A stretch of DNA of 64,000 nucleotides from the IMG/VR virus record IMGVR_UViG_3300028384_000673, positions 45,352 to 109,351 of that record; one strand, 5' to 3'. Origin of the DNA: a virus. Both the position numbers and the translations under genes were made by a program. A model generated the notes under the pieces. It made no database searches, had not been told where the DNA came from, and saw nothing but the letters and a program-made list of their open reading frames with translations. Shown here in pieces: positions 24,758 to 45,353 of the stretch. The first letter of the stretch is position 1; the number at the start of each line of letters is the position of its first letter.

Positions 24758-27700
24758 ATGTTCGCAGACAGAATTAACATCTCGGATAGAGTTGAAAATC
24801 AACTTCCCGAGTTCATTAGGGAAGAAGATCAACAACTTGTCAATTTTCTCTTTGAGTATTATTCCTCACAGGAGAAAACTGGACGCCCATTTAATGTTCT
24901 GAATAATCTGCTTACTTATTTGGATCTAGATGCGTATGATCCAAAAGTTCTTAATTCTGAGACTACTCTGATTAAAGATGTTGATCCTAGTATCGATCAT
25001 ATTGAAGTAGAACAGATTGATGGTTTCTTGCCGAACAATGGTTCGGTGATGATTGATAACGAAGTCATCTATTACAGTGAAACTGTACGTGGTCCTGATG
25101 CTATTTTGACTCCTGGCATCAGTCTGCAAGAATTTAACAAGAAGAGACAGGCACTAGAATCTCCTTGGGTTGAATTTGACGGTACTCGTACTACTTTTGA
25201 CCTCAAATTCCTCGGAACTCCCGTATCTCCCGTATCAGCAGATCACCTTGCTGTAACTATTTACGGAGATCTGCTAATTCCTGATACGGATTATACGATT
25301 AGTGGTTCTGAAATCACATTTACTACCGCACCTCGTGCTAGGACTGGTAATGATCAGGTAGAACTGACGCAGATCCTGTATTACATCGGTTTTGCTGACG
25401 CTACTGTTAAAGAACTGACCCTTCCTGCTATTTCTGAACTTGCAGGACAGGATTCGATGACTGTTCAATATGATAATCTTCCGTATGCACCTATTGCTGA
25501 GATCGGTCTGATTATTAACCGTAACGGAGTGCTGCAACGTCCGTTTGATGACTATGTTCTGACGGATAATAACAGTAAAATTAAGTTCTTTGTTAATATA
25601 ACTCCTCAGGACACTTTCCACATTCGTTCTATTGAGTATGTGTCTCCATCTGTGGGATCTGGCGCAGAGGCAGTCACCAGAGTTGGTATAAATGGCGAAA
25701 TTGAAGCAATCACTATCAAGAATGGTGGTTCTGGGTACAAACTTAACTTTGCACCCAAAGTATCAATTTTCTCTTCTACTGGTATCGGCACTGGTGCTGC
25801 TGCAAGGTCCCTTGTTAATGGTATTAAGGACGTAAGACTCATTAACGGTGGTCAAGGTTACTCTGCAAACAACCCTCCTGTTGTTAGAATTACCGAACCT
25901 AGTGATTTGATCAATGGTTCTCGTGCCGCTGCTAAAATTACAGTTGACGACACTACTGGTCAGGTTTCTGGAATTGAAATCACCAATTCTGGTTCTGGAT
26001 ATGACTTCATTCCTGCTATTACGTTTGTAAATCCCAGCGGTGGTGAAGTTTCTGGTTGTCAGATTGACTCTGAGGGTCGTCTTGTCGTTAATTCTATTAC
26101 TGTAACTAAGGGTGGTCTTGGTTATAGCAATCCTCCTCAAATCTATGTTGATCCTGCACCCGAAGATGGTATTAATGCAGAAGTAACTGCAAGTGTTGCT
26201 CCTGATGGAACTCTGTCGGGTGTTACGATTACTAATAGAGGTCGTGGATATACTACTGCACCCAAAGTTCGTGTTATCCAACCTGTTGGTGCTCAGGTTC
26301 TTGATGTTAATGTTGCTAACGGTAGTGTTACTAACATCAACCTGTTGACTGGTGGTAAAGGTTACACTGATGCACCGTCTATCTACATTGTGGATGACCG
26401 TAAGGACTCTGCTGGCGAATTTATCGGTGGTACTGGTGCAACTGCTGTTGCAACTATTTTTAATGGTGCAATTACCGATATTAACATCACCAATTTCGGT
26501 GAAGGGTATTCTACTACTGAACCACCTAAGGTTTACATCGCAGAACCGCTTTCTGCACAAGCATCTTGTGATGTTGGTTTCGGTGAGGTCACTGGTTGTG
26601 TGATTAGATCTTCTGGTGAAGACTATGAGGCATCGGCACTACGTGGATGTGCTCGTGGTGTCTCGGATGTAGTCCAATTTGACAATTATGGTAACCAAGT
26701 CTATGCCAAAGAAGAACAACTGAGACAAAGTGACCATAATCGGGGCACTATTGTTCATAACTTGGATTCGACGATCATTAGACAGGTTTTTGACAAGTTC
26801 CGTCGTCAATATATGCCTACGATCGATATTGACTATTCACAGGTCAATCCGATTCAAGTTATTAAGACTATTAAAGATTTCTACATCTCTAAGGGTACGA
26901 AAACTGCTACTCAGTATCTGTTTAAGATTCTGTTTGGTGAAGAAGTTGATGTTTTCTATCCCAGAGACGAACTGATCACTCCTTCTGCTGCATCCTGGGT
27001 TGTTGACACTATTCTTCGTGCAGAATTGATTTCTGGTGATCCTGCTAATCTTCCAAATGCAGAATTGCGTCAATTTGCAGATAGCGTTGATCAAAATATC
27101 AAAGACGCTTCGGTTCTGATCGAAAATGTCATCTCGATTATTGAAGGTACTGATACTATCTACGAATTGACAATTTCGGAGGAAACTCTGAGTGGTGTAT
27201 TCAAAATTCCTTATAAAACTGTTCTTGTTGAACCTCTTGACACTGTTGAGAACATTATTACTGTTGACTCAACTATTGGATGGCCTGAAAAGAATGGTAC
27301 TATCATTATTGATGACCAAGAAGTCATTCAGTACAAAGATAAGTCTCTGAACCAGTTTATCGAGTGTACTCGTTCCAAAAATGGCGTTGTAGAAGATTGG
27401 GATCCTGGCACTGATATCTTTTCTGATATTTTCGTTTATGTAAACAGGGGTCAAGATAATGAAGTTAAACTGCGTGTTCTCGGTATTGCAGAAGCAGGCA
27501 CTACCGTTCTTGAAGACAGTGGTTCATATTACTTGCCAGGTGATAAGCTTAATGTGGCTTCTTTGGGTAGCAGTGACGATGATGAGCGTTTACAATCATG
27601 GTTGTACAACGTTAAGAAACTCATCAAGGTCACATCGATTACTCCTGGGGGATCCAATAACCAGACTGCGACAGTTACATGTTCCAATCCCCATGGTTTG

Positions 27701-30700
27701 CTCGTAGAAGACAAAGTTACTATCTACGGTGCCAACCCAGCTGTATTTAACGGAACTTATGAGGTAACTTCTCGACTTAATGATTTTACCTTCACTTACG
27801 CAATTCCTGTTCCTACTCAGATTGTTCCTGAGGGTAATATTCTTCTGTCGGTTGACTTGAACAGAGGTAAGTCTCAGGTTAATTCTATTAACGACGTTAT
27901 CTCTCTGTTTACGTCAAATATTCAGAACTCTTTCTTTAATAATGATTACGTTTACGTTGCTGCTTCTGGTCTTCCCAACTATAAGGTTGGTCCTTTCGAG
28001 GGTTCTGCTCTAATTCCTGGTAACCAGCGTAAACTGCTCAGATTCCCCAGAGTAGTCAATACTGTCTCAACTAGAACTACGGTCAAACCTAATAACCCGA
28101 TTGGATCCTGGGTTAATGGTGTTGCTGCTTGGGGTTATAAGTCTAAGGACTATGTGACTTTTGGTCCTTTGACTGCAATCGCTATTACCAACAATGGTAT
28201 CGATTATGATGCTGGAAGTAAACCTGCACTGCAAATTTCTGGTGGAGGAGGAACTGGCGCATCAGCATCTGTTACTGTTAACGGATCACTGTTCTCTATT
28301 GATGTCACCAACGAAGGCAGTGGTTATAAGACCCAACCTTTGATCTCTATTGTTGGTGGTGGTGGATCTGGCGCAACCGCACAAGCAGTTGTCACCAACG
28401 GAAGAGTGACTCGTATTCTGGTTGAAAACGCAGGTACTGGATATACTTCTCAACCCACTATTTCTATTACTGGTGGTGATGGTATTGGAGCAACTGCAAC
28501 TGCACAAGTTCGTGGCCCTATCTCTGCGGTCACCTTAACTTCTAAGGGTTCTGGGTATACTTCTACTCCTGAGATCAAACTGAATTCTGGTGAAGGTGCT
28601 CTGGCACAACCTATTGTAATTAACGGTCGTATTGTTTCGATCGCTATCATTAACTCTGGTGAAAACTATACCACTGCACCTACTGTCTACATCAATGGTG
28701 ATGGTTTCGGTGCTCAGGCACAAGCAGTTATTGGAACTCTGGGTGAAGATAAAGGTAAGGTTGTTTCTATCCAAATTACTAATAAAGGTGTTGGATATAC
28801 CCAAGGTAATACCACTATTCGTTTGGAAGCAGTTGGTCAACTTGCTACCTTTGAAGCAAGCGTATTCCAATGGAATAAGAACTTAGAATATGACCTGAAC
28901 AGCAAGTATGACGTTGCTCGTGGTTATGTGTTTACTGGTTTCAATAATCAGTACGGTGGTGAGTATGGTCACATCTCTGACCCCAAAGAACTGCGTTATG
29001 TAGTTGGAGACAACGTTGTTCTCGATCCACAAACTCAAAGATTCCGTGAGATCGGTCAGAACGAAGCACACTCTCCGATTTTGGGTTGGGCATTTGATGG
29101 TAACCCGATTTACGGTCCTTATGGTTATATTGACCCGACTGATCAGAACAGTGGTCTTAGAAGAATGCGTTCTTCTTACAAACTGAAAGATGAGGTTGTA
29201 TATGACATCGATACTAACCCCACTCCCGCTAGAACAGATGGTCCTGCACTTTCGACCTATCCTGCTGGCACTTTCGTCAATGATTATGAATATTCTTTCC
29301 AGAGGGGCGACCTAGATCTATATAACGGTCGTTTCTGTAAGACTCCTGATTATCCCGATGGAACTTACGCATATTTCATCACTATCGATGAATCTGAGAC
29401 GGGTCTGCCTGTATTCCCTTATATCTTGGGTCCTGAGTACAACTCTGTTGTTGATATCTGGAATCTGAGTCAATCTGCTATTCAAGAGAACATTCCTGCC
29501 GACGTTTCTCGTTTCAGAGATCCATATGTGAATGTTGACATCGATATTGACCGTCAACCTAACCAACGCTCTGATGAATTCGTTACTGAGCGAGAAGGTG
29601 ACGTTCTTGTCTTTGAAATCGAAGATACTGATAATGATGGTATCATCAGTCCTTCTGAAATCGCAACTCTCAATGCAATCACCGAAGAAGCGGCATTGCA
29701 GATCTATGATTACTTCCCGAGAGTTTCTGCCGAGTCCAGAGTGGATATTGAGGTCGAAACTACTACTAAATTTGAATCTGCACAGATTGATGGATTTGTG
29801 ATCGAGAATCCTGGTGTTTCTTATCAGGTTAACGACACTCTCTTCTTTGATAACACCGATACTGATGGTTTTGGTGCATCTGCCCAAGTTGAGTCAGTTA
29901 CTGGTCGTCCAATCAGTGCTTATCGTAAGGAAATCATCAATGACCAACCTTATGGCAAAATTACCACTGAAAGTGATCATGAACTGATTGCACAAGACGA
30001 AATTATCGTTACTTCCAAAGTTATTACTGATAATACCAATAAGCGTTTCTACATGTCCGTTGTGACAGGTATTGAGAGTATTACCGTCGATCAGATTGGT
30101 GTTGGTTATAGTGAGGCACTTCCTCCATCTTATGAGATCATTTCTACTCAGGGTCAGGATGTTGAGTTGGATATTAAACTCGATGTCACTACTGGTAAGA
30201 TTGATAAGGTAGAGATCATTAATTCTGGTTTTAATTACTCAACTGATAATGTTCCTCAAATTAGAGTATCTCACCCCCAACAATTTAAGAAGACTTATTA
30301 TTGGGTTAATCAATATGTAGATAGTGGTGTAAATGGTGGCACATTTGAAATTTTTGATATTGCAACTACAAAGGATCGTAGTACTTACGTTTGTGGTGAA
30401 CTTACTCAATCTAATGGCGATACTGCCGCTTTCTTGGCAAAATTCTCAGACTTGGGTAGTCTAGTTTGGGATAGAACTCTTCTGCCTTCTTCTAGCAGAA
30501 AGGTGGCGAGATTCCGTCGTATGTATATTGATGAGACCTCCGAAACCAATCATCTGATTTATGTGGTAGGCGAAAGTGAATCTCAAACTGAATCTGGATA
30601 TAATCCCGATATCTTGGTCGCCAAATATGAATCTGGTCTCAATAATGCTAATAATCCCGAAGGTATCGTAAGATTCCAAAAAGAGATTGCTGGTGTCTCT

Positions 30701-33700
30701 GGTAGTACTCGTCGTGATTATGCTGGTGATATTTACCTGGATGATGAGCAAAGAGTATATCTCTGTGGTTGGACTGATACCAACTCTCCCGATCCTGATG
30801 ATATTTGGGTTATTCAACTTAATAACCAAGGTGATCTGATCGAGAAGCGTAAGTTTGCTTCTGACACCGAAGGTGAACAGATGCACCAACTGTATTACAT
30901 TGGTGATAACAAAGTTATCTTTGCTGGTATTGATCTCGATAACAATGATCTCATGTTTGGTGAGATGTCATATGATGGTGCAAATATTGAATTGAATTAC
31001 GTTAAGAGACTTGCTATTAGTGGTGGTCAGGTACAACGACCTCAGTTTGTTCTCGATTCTTATAATGATCTGTTCTTTGTATGTGATATGTGGAATGGCA
31101 CCAAACACTATGGTGTTGCATTCTTCAAGATTGCAATGTCACAGATCAGATTGACTGCTGCAACCCCTGAATATGAGTTTTCTAAGATTCTCGCTCCTAG
31201 CGTAACATTTGAATCTATTCAACACGCTGGTATCACTCTCGATGAGTTTGATAATGTCAATGTCATCACTCATATCCAGTATGAGGATAACAATCAGCAG
31301 GCAGTTATTAACTACTTTAAGTATGACGGCACTTCCCTTTACAAGTCTAATGTGATTCGTGGTGAGTGGAATACTACTGATAGTGATACTGACTATGGTC
31401 TTGGATTCACTGCATTCCAGCATGGTGTAGATAACTCTGGTGACGTTATTCTTCCTATCAACGTACAGAAATCTGTACAGTCTGCTGTATATCGTTTCAA
31501 CGATGGTGATGACTTGTCATTCGATGCAACTAAGCAAAAGAAGGCATACACTACTACTGGAACTGCTACTAGAAGCACTGCTCAGAAGAAGTTTGGTGCA
31601 TCTTCCCTCGAACTTGCTTCCAACAGTAGTTTGAATTGGCAAGACTTTAATAATGATGAGTGGTCTGTTGTCTTCTGGGCAAGATTGACTGCTGCTCACG
31701 CTTCTACCAATCCTCAAATGGAAATGGTTACTGCTGTTGATGATTCTGGCAGTAAAGTACGATTCATCATCAATGGTGATTCTACTGATGGTAATGACGG
31801 TAAGTGTACTCTTATCATTGATGATGGTAATGGCGGTGGAACCACTGTCCATTCTGTTGGTTCTACTTATTTCTCCACCATGGAGAACGAAGGTTGGCAC
31901 CATATTGCTGTGGTCAAGGAAGAACCCACTCTTGGTTCTTATGTATATTCTGCATTCTTCGATGGAGTACAGGTTTGTACTGCAACTAGAACCGAAGATA
32001 TTGCAATGGACGATCTGACTATTGCTAACAATGTTGGTGCTCCTGCTGCTAATAAGTCATTCAGAGGATTTATTGATGATCTTGTAATTGAAGGTAGAGC
32101 AGTTTATACTGGTGCTTCCCTGACCGTTCCTACTGAGCGTTATAGAATTACTACTAAGAACTCTGGTATGGATCTGGTTAAGTTTGACCGATTGCATAGT
32201 AAGCGTGATGACTATCAGATCGAGACCCAAGGTGTGGTATTCAATGAGAATACTAATCTCAATATCAACACACTGAATAACCCAGTCATTACTGTTTGGA
32301 ATGAAGGTTCTTCTGGTTTGCAGATTCTTGACTACTCCGATGTAGTATCAACTTTGTCTCCTGGAACTTACACTTTCCAAGAGACTGTCACCACCTTTAC
32401 TTCTAAGACCTCTACTATTCCTTCTCCACTTGGTAAGAGACTTCTCATCAGTCCTAACGTGGTGGCAAAGTATTACGTTAGAGATGCTTCTTATTCTAAG
32501 ATTGATAATGTCAAGCAGTTCACCTTTAACCAAAATATCAAGTTCACCAAAGGAACGACTATTGAACAATTTAACGCCCAGGGTGTAACTCAGGCATATG
32601 GCACTATTGTTGAAACTCCTACTGGAACGGTTGATAATCCTGGTTTGGGTAACACTTATAAGATCGGTAAGATCTTTGGTACTTTTAATAATGATGATAG
32701 ATTCAGAAACTCAACTGGTGAAGAGAACACTATTGACGGTCAAGTGTTTGCGGTCAAGCGTTCGCAAGATGAGTGGGTAACAAACAAAGCATATTCTGTG
32801 GGCGATCAGGTTTATAGTGACGGTAAGATATATGCTGCTACTAATAACGCTACTTCTGGTTCAACTGCTCCTGAGCATAGTATCGGCATTGTAACTGATG
32901 GTGCTGTTCTCTGGAACTACATTAGTGCCTCTGGAACGCTGCAAGTTTCGCTCGCTAATTTCCCGTGGCCGAAACCTGTGGAAAACGAATGGGAAACCAA
33001 TCGTTCATATGCTATCAACGACTTTGTATACTTTGGTCGTTATAAGTATCAAGCAACCACTGCTGGTCTTTCTGGTTCTACTAGTCCGACGCACACGAGT
33101 GGTATTGTTAGTGATGGAAATGTCAGTTGGCAGTACATTAGTACATATGATCCACTCTCTGATTACGCACGTTTCCGTCCGTATAGAGAAGAAGATTATA
33201 CTGTTCAGATCATGGAGGTCTACTCCGATTCTGACTTCATCGTTGGTGACGTAGTTTCTCTTGGCGGATCGATTACTGCTGCACCTAATTCGGATAATCC
33301 TAAGATTGCTGATCTTACTGGTTTGAGCAGTGTTAAAGAAATTAAACTCACTGTTAATCTTGATAAGGACATTCTTAGAACTGCTGAGGGTAGATCTGAT
33401 CTCATCTATGCAACTGCTGTCACTCCTCACAACTTTGAGGATGGTGATATCCTGTTCGTTGAAGGATTCTCAACTAACGAGTTTAACGGTTCATTCTTCG
33501 TTAAAGAAGTCTTCTCTTCCAGAGATTTCATCTATACACTTAGAGCAACTGCTTCTCAGGATCCACAATTCGCTCAGGGTGCTATTTCTCGGGTGAAGAT
33601 CTCTTCTAAGCACCCAACTCTACAACTGGTTAGAAATCACTCTTATATCTTTGATATGAGCGATGCTTCTAACTTCGGTTATTACTTATCTTTCTCTGAG

Positions 33701-36700: not shown

Positions 36701-39700
36701 AGCACCCTGACTGAGGGAACTAAATTCCAAAACCAGACTGGTCTTGCTACGGGTGAAGTCGTCAGAGTGGATATGGATGCATCTCCACCAGTTCTGTACT
36801 ACCTGAAATCCAGTGAGGCAGACATTGCAGAGGATGATGTAATCCAAGAGTATACTTCTGATCCTGTAAATCCTGAGCAAAGAATTCTTGGCACCAAAAC
36901 TGAAACCGTTGCTGGTGAAATTAGATTGGGTGATATTGTTGATACTCTGACTATCAATAAAGGTTCTTCTTTCTTCGGTATAATCTTTGAACGTCTGATT
37001 TCGTTGACTAATGCCAACGTGATTGTTGATGATATTTCTAAGACTACCATTACTCCTACTGAACTTTCCGACGCTGATCAACGTATCAATGCGGACTTCC
37101 TGGATTTTGAACAGGTTCGTTCTACTGAGATTGAGTATGAAAATCTGACTGGCGGTACTATCGCTGCTGATGATGTTCTGCGCTCTATCACGTTTGAGTA
37201 TGGCAACACTGTTACCAACTCTAAGAACAGATGGAAAGATGCTGGTCGTATGATCGGTCTGAACCGTGATGAGATTGTTGATTTTGCTAACGCAGAAATC
37301 GCCGTCGAGCATCCTGGTTTCTACTATCCTGGTGATAACACCACTGATCAGTGGTCCAGATATGCTGATGCTTATCGTCTGATTCAGAAGAACAGAGAGT
37401 ATATCATCGCCAAGGCATATGTCCTGATGACTGCTGAGTATCCTGCTCTTTCTGTTCCTTCGGAAGATAAGTGCAAGCGTGACATTGGTTACTTCATCGA
37501 TGCTCTTTCCTTTGATACTTATTCTGGTGGCACTGTTTATACTCGTAAACTGGCACAGAAGTATTTCTCCACTGATGGAACTCAATTCCTCTATGTAAAT
37601 AACGAAGCAGAAGCGACTGAGTTTGCTTTTGAGAAAGCAACTGAACTCATGCGTCAGGCACTCAGAAATGATCTGGATGGTTCTGAGGTTGTTGGTGGTG
37701 TTACTTACATCTTCTATAACGAGAGAACTACTGGTGGATCTGGTGGTACTGGTATCACTGCTGATCCTTCGCCTGGTAATCCTTATGGCACTGCTGGTTC
37801 CAATGAGCAGAACTATGGAACCAATAACTGCTCTGACGTACAATCTGCGCTGCAAACTCTGTTTGATAACATCTCAGTTATCCTGCTTGCTGGTTCTCTC
37901 GCAGACCTACTTGATGAAGTTACTCCAACTCAATACAGCGCCAATGAAATCAAGTGTCGTCGTGACATCGGTCTGCTGCTTGACGCAATTCAGGCAGATA
38001 TTACTGATGATGGCAACTACAAGACTGTTGAATTTGTCCGCTCCTACTTCGATGCCTCTGGTTCTCCGATCACCAACGGTCTCGTAGGTGAAACTGCTGA
38101 GTCCCTCACTGCATTCAGAAAAGCAGGTGAACTCTGCCGTATGGCAATTAACAACCTACTGTATTCTCAGGTCAATACTAGAACAGCAGAAGCAGGTTAC
38201 ATGCTGAAAGATCCAACTACGTACGCTGGTCCTTACCTGGGTGCAACTGGATCTACTCTGCAAGAGTTTGACGTGTCTAATGCCGTTTACACGCCTGGTA
38301 CTGGCGTGATGGTTCTGACTATCGGTACTCACTCACTGACTACCTCAGATTCTCTGACTATCCGTCCTTACTCTTTGAGATTTACTTGTGCAAGTGATAG
38401 TAATGCATCGTTCCACGATTATCCTCGTACTGGTGATCCTGCATTCAATACTGCTCTGAGTATTACTGCAACTACTGCAACCACAGTTACTGTGAATGTT
38501 GGTGATGCTGGAACTGCATCTGGTCAGGCACACACCTTTATCAGCGCACTGGATAATGCAGTGTTTGTTGGTGGCGGTACTGAGGCAGCATACTATGATC
38601 CAAATTATGCTAGCGGTAGAAACGAAAGCATTCAGCATTGTGCTGATGTTCAGGCAGGAATTCATACCTTGGTTGAAATTGCTGCTACTGCAATCGGTGC
38701 TGGTAACCTCAACAACGTCAATGCTCTTTCCACCATCACCGATGGTACTTATAATGAGAATGAGAACATTCGTGCATTGAAGATTGCATACAAAGATCGT
38801 GCAGGATCTGGATTCTTCATTCCTGGCGATACTCTCAGAGGTTATTCTTCGGGTGCCTCTATGACAGTCAAAGGTGTTAACTCTGGTTTGAAGTGGGTCT
38901 TCACCAACTCAATTACTGGTACTTTCACTGATAGAGAATGGATTACCAACTCTAAACTGACTGCTAATGGCACGATTGGTTTGACCAAGTTAGAGAAGAA
39001 GACAGGTACTCAGTCTCTACACTTCCAAACTCACACTGGTCTGACCCACGCTCTGTCTGATGTTAACAATTTCGGTACTGCCGACTTTACCATTGAGATG
39101 TGGATTCGTCCTTCTACTAACCCTCAGACTGGAATCAAGTATCTGTATGACAGCAGAACTCAGATTGCAACTCTGACTGGTTCTCCTGTTCTGTACTTAG
39201 AAAACAATTCGATTAAGTTCTGGTTGAATGGTACTGATCAGATTTCGGGCGCACATAACATGACAGTTGACACTTGGCATCACGTTGCTGTGTCTAGAAC
39301 TACTGGTATCACTAAGGTTTGGGTTGATGGCGCTCAGGTTGGTGGTGATTATTCTGATAGCAACAACTATCTGGAACGTCCGTTCAGAATCGCAGCGGGT
39401 TGGGATGGTACTAATACCTTCCAAGGTCATATAGACAACCTTTTGATTCATAAAGAATCCTTGTATTCTGCTACGTTTACTCCTGGATCTACTTATCCGA
39501 CGAACACTGCAAATGTGTCTTTCGGTATGAGCATGGAGACTCCAATTATCGTCAGTACCGAAGAGTCTTACGCTAAGTTCACTGGTCAGACCAACTCTGC
39601 TGCCACTGCTAAGAAGGTCAACTATGATGATCGTGAAATCACGATTGAAGATATTGATCTTGCACGTGATGAGCATCGTAAGTGTGCTGACATGCTGGAA

Positions 39701-42700
39701 CTGAACCTCGATTGGATTTCAGAAACTGCTGTTGGTCTTATGGCAGCGAAGTATCCCGACTTCGTAATTCCTGGCGACACTGACACCAGTGAGCAGGGTA
39801 CTAACAAGTGTATTCGTGATACCAAAGAGTACATCCTGAAAGCAATCATCGCTGACATTCGTTACGGTGGTAACTACAACAGCGTGATCTCTGGTAGAGG
39901 ATATCTCACCAAGTCTGGTGGTCTGAACTACGTCGGTAATGAACTGCTGCAATCTGTATATGCTTGGGATGAACTTGCTAATGTGATGAACTTCGTGATC
40001 ACCACTACTAGCACGGATCTTGAAAAGTATCCCGCTACCGATGGTACTAAGTATAGCGACATTCTGCGTATTCCAAACAACTTTACTGCTCCTGCATCTC
40101 AATCAATTCAGGACGAGATCAATGGTCTGTCCAATACGATTATTGATATCCTCTGCCCAACTGGCGATAGATTCCGTGATGGCGGCGATGCTATCTGGAA
40201 AAACCGTGATTACATTGCTGAGGAAGTTGTTGGTTATCTGCAAGATAAGTATCGTGCAACCATCACTGGACCTCTGGGAGAAGAGCGTGAATTTGACTTC
40301 TTGGTTATGCCTGGTTATGGCGAACCCTATTGTGTGCGAGATATCAAGAAGCACATCTTGCCTGCTGTAATCACTGACTTGCTGACTGGCGGTAACTCTT
40401 CTGTTCAGTACGTCATTGATCAATATCTCAATACTGACGATCAAGTTCTTCACGTTGAAGATGAACTTAGTGCAATGTTGGACGCATTTGAGTTTACTAA
40501 GAAACTCTGCCATCATGCGATCAACCAAACTCTGCTGACTAATGGAACCACTGCTTCTGGTCTTGGTATTCCTGCAAATCTTCAAGACGAATACTATGTT
40601 GCCGTCTGGACTGACGAGGAAGCATACAGAGACACCACTGTCACTATTGACCCAGAGGCACCTAATCAGGCTCGCACTGGTCCTAACCATGATCGCCTCA
40701 TGGATGCTGCTGACATGCTGGAACGTAACAAGTATGTGATTGCATGGGAAGCAGTTCACACCATGAACGATATGTCTAAGCATATCGACTTTACGGTCCC
40801 TGGCGGTCGTAAGAACTGCACCGATGATGTGGTCGATCTCATCGAATCCATGGTACATGACCTTCGCATGGGTGGCAATTCCAAGACTTGGGACGCTGCT
40901 GAACTTTATCTAAATGATGAGGATGATACTCTCCTCCACATCGAAGGTGAAGAAGATCAGTCGGTTTGGGTGTTGAAGTGGGCAATGGATATTGCGATCC
41001 TGACCATGCGTAATGGTTTCGGACGTGAGAATCTCTACATCTATCAGGAAGAGAGTGGTATTGATGGTAGCGTTGGTGGCGGTGGTGCTGAATCCTTTGA
41101 TGAGGTTGAAACCAGCAGTTACGAACAAAATGCTGTACGTGACCGCTTCATTGATGCTGCTAATATCATCGAAAGAAACATCCGTTTCATCGCTGAGGAA
41201 GCATTCCATTTGGGTCAAGTGCAGTATCCTTCGCTGGTTATTCCTGGTGGATCTGGCAACTGGGTTCACGATATTACCGACATCTTGGATGCCCTGCAAT
41301 GGAACCTCCGTCATGGTGGTAACAACAAGGTCTTCCATACTGCTGAACTCTATGTGAGTAATAGTGCTCTATCGCACATCTCCTCGCAGGTTGCCGAATC
41401 TACCTGGATCTTTGACAAAGCGATCGAACTTGCTGTTGATGTGATGCAAAATGATACCATCACTGTTGCTGGATCTCATGGATACACTCAGAAGTTCTAC
41501 GCTGATCTGGACTTCGCCCCCTACAACACCAATGATTACTCTATCACTGTTGATGGCGCACCTGACGCAACTCACGGCACTTGTGCTGATGTGAGATCTG
41601 CAATGATGACTTTGATGGATGTTGTGACTGATACGCTTGCAACTCCCGCTAGCATCACTGACGGTACTATCACTAAGAGTCTGCCGAACATCTGGCCTGT
41701 AAAGTATTCCCCCGACATGGTTCATCGTGACCTGTCTGTCACTTACGACACCAGTGCAACTGGTGGTTGGAATACCACTTGCGAGCAGGTTGCTTCTAGC
41801 ATCGAAACTCTCTTCGATCTGGTTATCGACACCATCGAGAAAGCACGTTCTGCAACTCCTTCACCTAATTATTTGACCACTGTTACTAGAACTGGTCCTT
41901 CTACGGGCAACACCAACTACCAGTTGTATACTTGCTACAACGTTGTTGATGCCTCACACACTCTGTTCGATCTGATGATTGAAACTCTGGGTGGTGGATC
42001 ATTCTCCGATCGTACTGCTGCTCGTTATCTCACCTTTAACAAACACGCTATTGTTGATAAGGCATTCACTGAGACTCAGAGTCAGTATCCTGGCACTGCT
42101 GTTACCGAAGACTTTGGTCACAGCATCATGAAGGCAATGATCTATGATCTCAACACTGGTGGTAACGGTGGAATGATGAAACTGGCGAACACTTGGTTCG
42201 ACGGTGAAGGTCAATTTATCGCCTTTGATGGTATTGTCCGTCAGCATCTGTTGTTCTACATGCTGAGACTCTCCGAAGCATCGAAGAGAATCATGTATGA
42301 TCAGAATAATACTGCCGAATGGGGAGTTGATAACAGACATTTCCGTTATCTTGATGACACCCGTATGGATGCCATTGAGTATAGATTCGAGTACGAGCAA
42401 GAGTCCACTGAGTTCCGTCTGGATGCTTCCTGGAACGTTGCTAACTTTGCACTGACTAGATCTCAGACGCCTGCTAACAATAAGGTTACCTGGATTAATA
42501 GCACTGACGCAACTAACCTACAAAACCTTTATGACGAGGGTACTGATTGGAACACTGATCCTGATCTGGTTCTCAACACGCCTAGCGTCGAAGTTGGATT
42601 TGAAAGAAGAGAGAATCGAGTTAAGATTACTCGCCCGAACTTCTATTCTCGTGGAGACGTTCTCACTTACGTGCCCGCATCTAGCGATATTGAAAGTGCA

Positions 42701-45334: not shown

Positions 45335-45353
45335 GTAAAAAAGTCCGAATCAA

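Follow-up and report, generated by a model that had tools for sequence, protein, structure and literature searches.

The window analysed here, 64,000 nucleotides of the record IMGVR_UViG_3300028384_000673 (positions 45,352 to 109,351) of a marine virus of cyanobacteria, encodes a gp7-type baseplate wedge initiator of 6857 amino acids (24758-45331, plus strand) that carries phycobiliprotein-like domains. Five copies of a cysteine motif, C-x-x-V-x5-T-L-(F/M/V)-(D/E), occur in this protein where the original prediction had placed them (37829, 38639, 41582, 41780 and 41933), and profile searches and structure models show that each copy is the C-terminal helix of a domain with the phycobiliprotein fold, five such domains lying within the baseplate protein. 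Judged by the same profiles and models, the motif corresponds in both structure and sequence to the beta-153/155 bilin site. Covalent binding of bilin by these domains is probable; the wider explanation, a pigmented baseplate with bilin-bearing domains whose second cysteine would be loaded by phage CpeT, is evenly balanced.

Five motifs and the phycobiliprotein fold

The motif pattern matches nowhere else in the 6857-residue open reading frame (ORF), and 2000 shuffles of the protein gave no match. The pattern was itself derived from these five copies, so conservation is the better test, and all five motif cysteines, referred to here as second-site cysteines, are invariant in 13 and in 17 orthologous regions at 51-74% identity. 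The family PF00502 (Phycobilisome) scores 40.7 bits summed over the region (E 3e-10) against a cut-off of 22.2, with individual blocks at 15-21 bits, under that cut-off. A profile built from phage repeats only detects the alpha and beta subunits of cyanobacteria (159 of 169 at E < 0.01), and a pooled profile run against the PDB returned phycobiliproteins or proteins derived from them as all of its top 60 matches (best E 5.9e-6). Iterated profiles delimit seven domains, D1 to D7, of about 150 residues each.

AlphaFold models of the repeat blocks were searched against 48,161 chains, and for both models ranks 1-8 were all phycobiliproteins. The model of D2 has a globin-like fold that best matches phycoerythrin beta (5aqd_M; Z 15.2, root-mean-square deviation 3.8, 149 residues aligned), and the alignment extends through the helix after the cysteine at 37829 to the chain end, so that the cysteine motif forms the last helix of the fold. 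Other searches returned less: Foldseek with the whole 516-residue model gave no match at E < 0.001 (phycoerythrin stood at rank 40), the ESM Atlas gave no usable match, and a search of 5.8 billion proteins gave three fragments only. Single domains aligned weakly with alpha and beta subunits by local profile alignment, and D4 and D6 failed.

The phage domains resemble phycocyanin and phycoerythrin beta subunits (CpcB/CpeB, PF00502) in the globin-like fold, the first-site motif C-x-R-D, the cysteine in the beta-153/155 register and the aspartate of helix A. The C-x-R-D motif is present in D1-D4, takes the form C-x-D-D in D5, and is absent from D6 of this genome and from D7. Whereas CpcB and CpeB are free subunits with X/Y helices that assemble into alpha-beta trimers, the phage domains are joined in one long chain, some lying inside others and broken up by inserts. 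X/Y helices were not seen in the alignments, the profile matches starting at about subunit residue 33-38, and identity with phycobiliproteins is 10-19% in structural alignments. The first half of the phage domain is nearer to alpha subunits in sequence, and the domain is therefore not simply a captured cpcB.

That the host protein of these domains is a T4-like gp7 follows from its position between gp6 and gp8 homologues and from its orthology to the annotated gp7 of S-SZBM1 and S-WAM1 (62% over the repeat region for S-SZBM1). Its virion location is given by the S-SZBM1 orthologue, of which 71 peptides were detected when purified virions were analysed (PMC9146016).

The putative second pigment site

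The original prediction assigned the motif cysteine to the beta-155 register, and the assignment held: cysteine lies 11 residues ahead of Phe-Asp in all 73 cyanobacterial beta subunits fetched, 71 of which carry K-R-x-D in helix A. Asp39 is the counter-ion of the beta-155 bilin. When D1 and D5 were rejoined and aligned globally with beta-subunit profiles, Asp39, Cys82 and Cys153 fell in register, weakly (E ~0.015). In the phage protein an R-x-x-D motif matching beta Lys36/Asp39 occurs in all five domains with a second cysteine and in neither of the two domains without one (D3 and D7). Both marks of a beta subunit, the cysteine of position 153/155 ahead of the last helix and Asp39 of helix A, are thus found.

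Co-variation was followed in the best 150 of 1300 library matches. Proteins of a two-site class (45) hold 218 first-site, 181 second-site and 136 R-x-x-D motifs, as against 1152, 4 and 3, respectively, in a one-site class (105 proteins). The first-helix aspartate is present in 119/122 cases in two-site and in 34/335 in one-site proteins. Second cysteine and R-x-x-D are correlated with rho 0.90, a value that may stem from few events, the proteins being related. Cys153 and Asp39 lie far apart in sequence yet are lost jointly, as a shared pocket predicts. The first-site cysteine is kept in 1448 of 1455 profile matches, a partly circular count.

Domains nested within domains

Insertion of domains into one another accounts for the distances between the motifs: D2 lies in D1, and D6 in D5 in D4, all on the plus strand. 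D1 opens with its first helices (37214-37333, R-x-x-D at 37229), after which D2, to which the 5aqd_M and PF00502 matches belong, is inserted complete (37346-37891; R-x-x-D at 37358, C-x-R-D at 37472, second cysteine at 37829). D1 resumes with its middle helices (37931-38182, C-x-R-D at 37955) and closes with its last helix (38600-38707, second cysteine at 38639). In the second repeat block D3 (39659-40156) keeps C-x-R-D (39809) and lacks both the second cysteine and the R-x-x-D aspartate. The body of D4 (40157-40657; R-x-x-D at 40169, C-x-R-D at 40331) encloses D5 and D6, and that of D5 (40682-41032; R-x-x-D at 40694, C-x-D-D at 40817) encloses D6. D6 is complete (41132-41647), with R-x-x-D at 41144, Trp replacing the first cysteine at 41261, and the second cysteine at 41582. 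There follow the last helices of D5 (41735-41848, second cysteine at 41780) and D4 (41909-41992, second cysteine at 41933), the enclosure of D6 in D5 in D4 thus returning the last helices in reverse order. D7 (41996-42307) is degenerate, with neither cysteine nor aspartate.

Structural matches spanning model residues 11-508 (D1), 1-616 (D4) and 161-561 (D5; Z 13.7 and 13.5) back the nesting, and D6 is matched over about 324-500. The same bracket pattern is seen in other phages, among them S-CAM1 with four first-helix segments and then four returns. The Trp of D6 stands where 12/12 aligned relatives have the first-site cysteine, which makes D6 a natural single-site test domain.

Distribution of cpeT and bilin genes

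T-type lyases are specific for Cys-155 (PMC2327270), and the original prediction proposed the baseplate protein as a target of phage CpeT. A cpeT gene is present in the same genome, about 17 kb upstream of the window (G000:27885-28373), where it overlaps a 2-oxoglutarate (2OG) oxygenase gene and ends 2 nt before the baseplate-hub gene gp5. The end of cpeT lies 0-9 nt from the gp5 start in 29/35 related loci; in S-PM2, S-WAM2, S-CAM1 and S-RIM44 cpeT lies 1-2 kb upstream of the repeat-bearing giant gene.

A set of 27 complete cyanophage genomes, picked by the authors, contains 17 with both repeats and cpeT, nine with neither, one with repeats only (S-T4) and none with cpeT only. With broader profiles the negatives stood, and ACG-2014f proved to have a diverged cpeT; before that correction the association had a Fisher p of 1.2e-5. 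Three T4-like phages of heterotrophs have neither repeats nor cpeT, and all 369 tblastn matches among 50,697 phage records fall in entries named Synechococcus, Prochlorococcus or Cyanophage, bar one 'Marine' virus. In P-SSM4 gp7 (L281) all C-x-R-D cysteines are lost and one second-site cysteine is left, with cpeT and bilin reductase kept, a natural near-null variant.

The original prediction thus retains its beta-155 counterpart, an encoded CpeT and, in the 27 genomes, a cpeT that never occurs without the repeats; its lyase step would be a further inference. Its companion expectation, that ho1, pebS or pcyA would track the repeats, failed: a bilin reductase is present in 5/17 repeat-bearing and 3/9 repeat-free genomes (Fisher p=1), and neither bilin reductase nor haem oxygenase was found in the examined 60% of this genome. 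Bilin reductase is present in all four repeat-bearing phages isolated on Prochlorococcus, which would fit supply of bilin in a bilin-poor host. The cyanophage genes cpeT, pebS, pcyA and ho1, like the hemO-pcyX-alaS cassette, do occur in repeat-bearing genomes. A survey found cpeT in 12/16 cyanomyophage genomes, including phages of Prochlorococcus, a host without intact phycobilisomes; phage bilin auxiliary genes have been read as aiding host light harvesting or metabolism, their role, like that of cpeT, being called unresolved (PMC3037559).

A link with S-type lyases was rejected, CpeS being confined to three repeat-free phages. The cluster C phages S-CREM2 (L113:8773-9225), S-B68 and MC09 have an S-type lyase, no repeats and no cpeT. 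In the present genome cpeT is tightly coupled to the 2OG-Fe(II) oxygenase gene on one side and to gp5 on the other (L112:9297-12962; G000 27296-30961). In S-PM2 a 2OG oxygenase gene lies between cpeT and the repeat-bearing gene, and genes of similar size occupy that place in S-CAM1 and S-RIM44. The S-PM2 record (AJ630128) also annotates 16 tRNA genes inside the 3779-residue repeat ORF p218 (L292:7929-19268), probably from stale coordinates.

A one-site family in phages without psbA

Uncultured phages encode proteins with one-site repeats, as many as about 35 in a single protein, and psbA was found in 0/19 of the contigs; haem oxygenase and PcyA-like reductase genes are adjacent in 4/19. One 4799-residue protein with 27-29 such repeats (L366:712-16864) is encoded two genes from a 5-aminolevulinate synthase (TIGR01821, 566 bits), an arrangement that matches the cassette of PMC11480375. 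A CpeT-family gene is carried by four near-identical contigs, and in G006, the one of them examined, the repeats are without the second cysteine.

Equal occurrence of the repeats in phages of non-phototrophs that lack bilin genes had been named by the original prediction as damaging to it, and this is borne out in part: G010, 93% complete and without psbA, has about 20 one-site repeats and no bilin gene was found in it, and in one lineage CpeT goes with repeats that are without the second cysteine. The bilin genes of some psbA-less phages with one-site repeats support a general link between repeats and bilin. A CpeT-family gene lies at L448:1681-2364 (minus strand) in a psbA-less phage of 271 kb, its product having a hydrophobic N-terminus that resembles a signal peptide; the repeats there are without the second cysteine.

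Light-dependent adsorption

Darkness prevents adsorption of P-HM1 and P-HM2, S-PM2 adsorption requires light though not photosynthesis, and P-SSM2 adsorbs in the dark; adsorption in light only has been ascribed to light-sensitive receptors of the host or tail fibres, of unknown identity (PMC6628666). The domains are present in P-HM1, P-HM2 and S-PM2 and absent from P-SSM2. That pigmented domains gate adsorption by light is a tentative suggestion, more probably wrong than right.

Proposed mechanism and alternatives

Bilin ligation and pigmentation are what we infer from the fold, the two site motifs, their co-variation, the co-occurrence with cpeT and the gene context. The Synechococcus host would make the bilin, which would be attached to the gp7 domains late in infection, ahead of virion assembly. 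The second cysteine would be loaded by phage CpeT, which would share a transcript with tail genes; loading of the C-x-R-D cysteine would fall to an S-type lyase of the host or be spontaneous, as in bilin biosynthesis-associated globins (BBAGs; PMC10151467). The resulting virion would be pigmented at its baseplate, most likely for light-dependent control of adsorption or of tail triggering, or alternatively for light screening. That CpeT acts on the phage domain, a step suggested by genomic correlation only, stands at an even balance; complex prediction for D2 with CpeT of this genome, scored 0.00, weighs on neither side.

Several observations weigh against this pigmented-baseplate explanation. 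A gp23 tree gives only two to three well-supported independent contrasts between repeats and cpeT, none of them discordant, and the result is not significant. S-T4 has the two-site domain without cpeT. G006 has CpeT (E 2e-20) and repeats without the second cysteine, which, with the one-site phages, weakens a strict pairing of CpeT with Cys153. The repeats do not correlate with pebS and pcyA, and a pairing of repeats with these two genes was rejected. Most P-SSM4 domains are without cysteine; loss of the covalent sites need not abolish the fold. The model of D4-D6 has low confidence (predicted local distance difference test, pLDDT, 49). The adsorption match comprises four phages, and adsorption of P-SSM2 is light-enhanced too.

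The alternative that survives best accepts bilin-binding domains and has them loaded by host lyases or spontaneously, phage CpeT serving host phycoerythrin or carrying bilin and tracking the repeats through ancestry and linkage. It is held unlikely: the few contrasts on the gp23 tree, S-T4, G006, the self-chromophorylation of BBAGs without lyases (PMC10151467) and the hosts' own CpeT are set against the lack of a cpeT-only genome among the complete cyanophages, the presence of cpeT in phages of Prochlorococcus, where phycobilisomes are not intact (PMC3037559), and its place among late tail genes.

Less still can be said for domains that are phycobiliprotein mimics or adhesins, touching a host protein or surface, with pocket residues that would serve to bind tetrapyrrole non-covalently or to aid folding, and a virion without pigment. 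Near-constancy of the first-site cysteine (partly circular, as noted), joint loss of Cys153 and Asp39, and one-site proteins of genomes that also encode haem oxygenase and bilin reductase, one beside 5-aminolevulinate synthase, make this improbable, even though P-SSM4, D3 and D7 retain the fold without one or both cysteines, G010 has its repeats with no bilin gene found, and lectin-like domains adjoin the repeats.

The two bilin sites lie far apart in the phycobiliprotein fold. Structural disulfides between the two cysteines, which an extracellular protein with five C-x-(R/D)-D and five second cysteines could form and which the original prediction had set against the bilin-site reading, are very improbable, the two being gained and lost independently: D6 has the second only and D3 the first only, P-SSM4, L029 and L030 keep the second alone, and the one-site proteins show the 1152-to-4 imbalance given above.

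Among known systems, BBAGs resemble the phage domains: they too are CXRD-type bilin-binding globins outside antennae, tied to haem oxygenase and bilin reductase genes, and are likened here by description only. They are bacterial cluster-associated globins, and in the part of their description available there is no mention of a second site, of nesting in tandem or of a place in the virion (PMC10151467). No published description of the phage domains, and no paper naming a phage-encoded bilin acceptor, was found in the literature searched, most subscription journals lying outside its coverage. Added here are the second site, its partner aspartate, the nested arrangement, the division of the proteins into a two-site and a one-site class, and the cpeT tally with its counter-examples. 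If the explanation is right, cpeT would be recast from an aid to host photosynthesis to a virion maturation enzyme, and the virion would, as far as we know, be the first of any phage to bear covalently attached pigment. The findings bear on what phage CpeT acts on (PMC3037559), on why some cyanophages adsorb only in light (PMC6628666) and, through nested domains with lyase sites, on phycobiliprotein evolution; such domains could be multi-chromophore scaffolds. In a broader and speculative form, which we consider doubtful, T4-like cyanophage virions would be biliprotein particles, with CpeT-loaded nested domains in baseplate and fibres through which the particle senses light and adsorbs light-dependently; its one-site version would explain the haem oxygenase, bilin reductase and 5-aminolevulinate synthase genes of phages whose hosts are probably non-phototrophs.

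Other modules of the protein

A Laminin G/concanavalin A-like domain (39053-39463, plus strand; PF13385, E 9e-18) separates the two repeat blocks. Within D1, between its middle helices and its last helix, lies an optional beta-barrel insert (38255-38575, plus strand), of which relatives have 0, 1 or 2 copies. The module has a C-x(8-13)-Y-P-R motif, its copy number in the repeats varies across many relatives, and in fold it comes closest to a phage endosialidase domain (Z 7.7).

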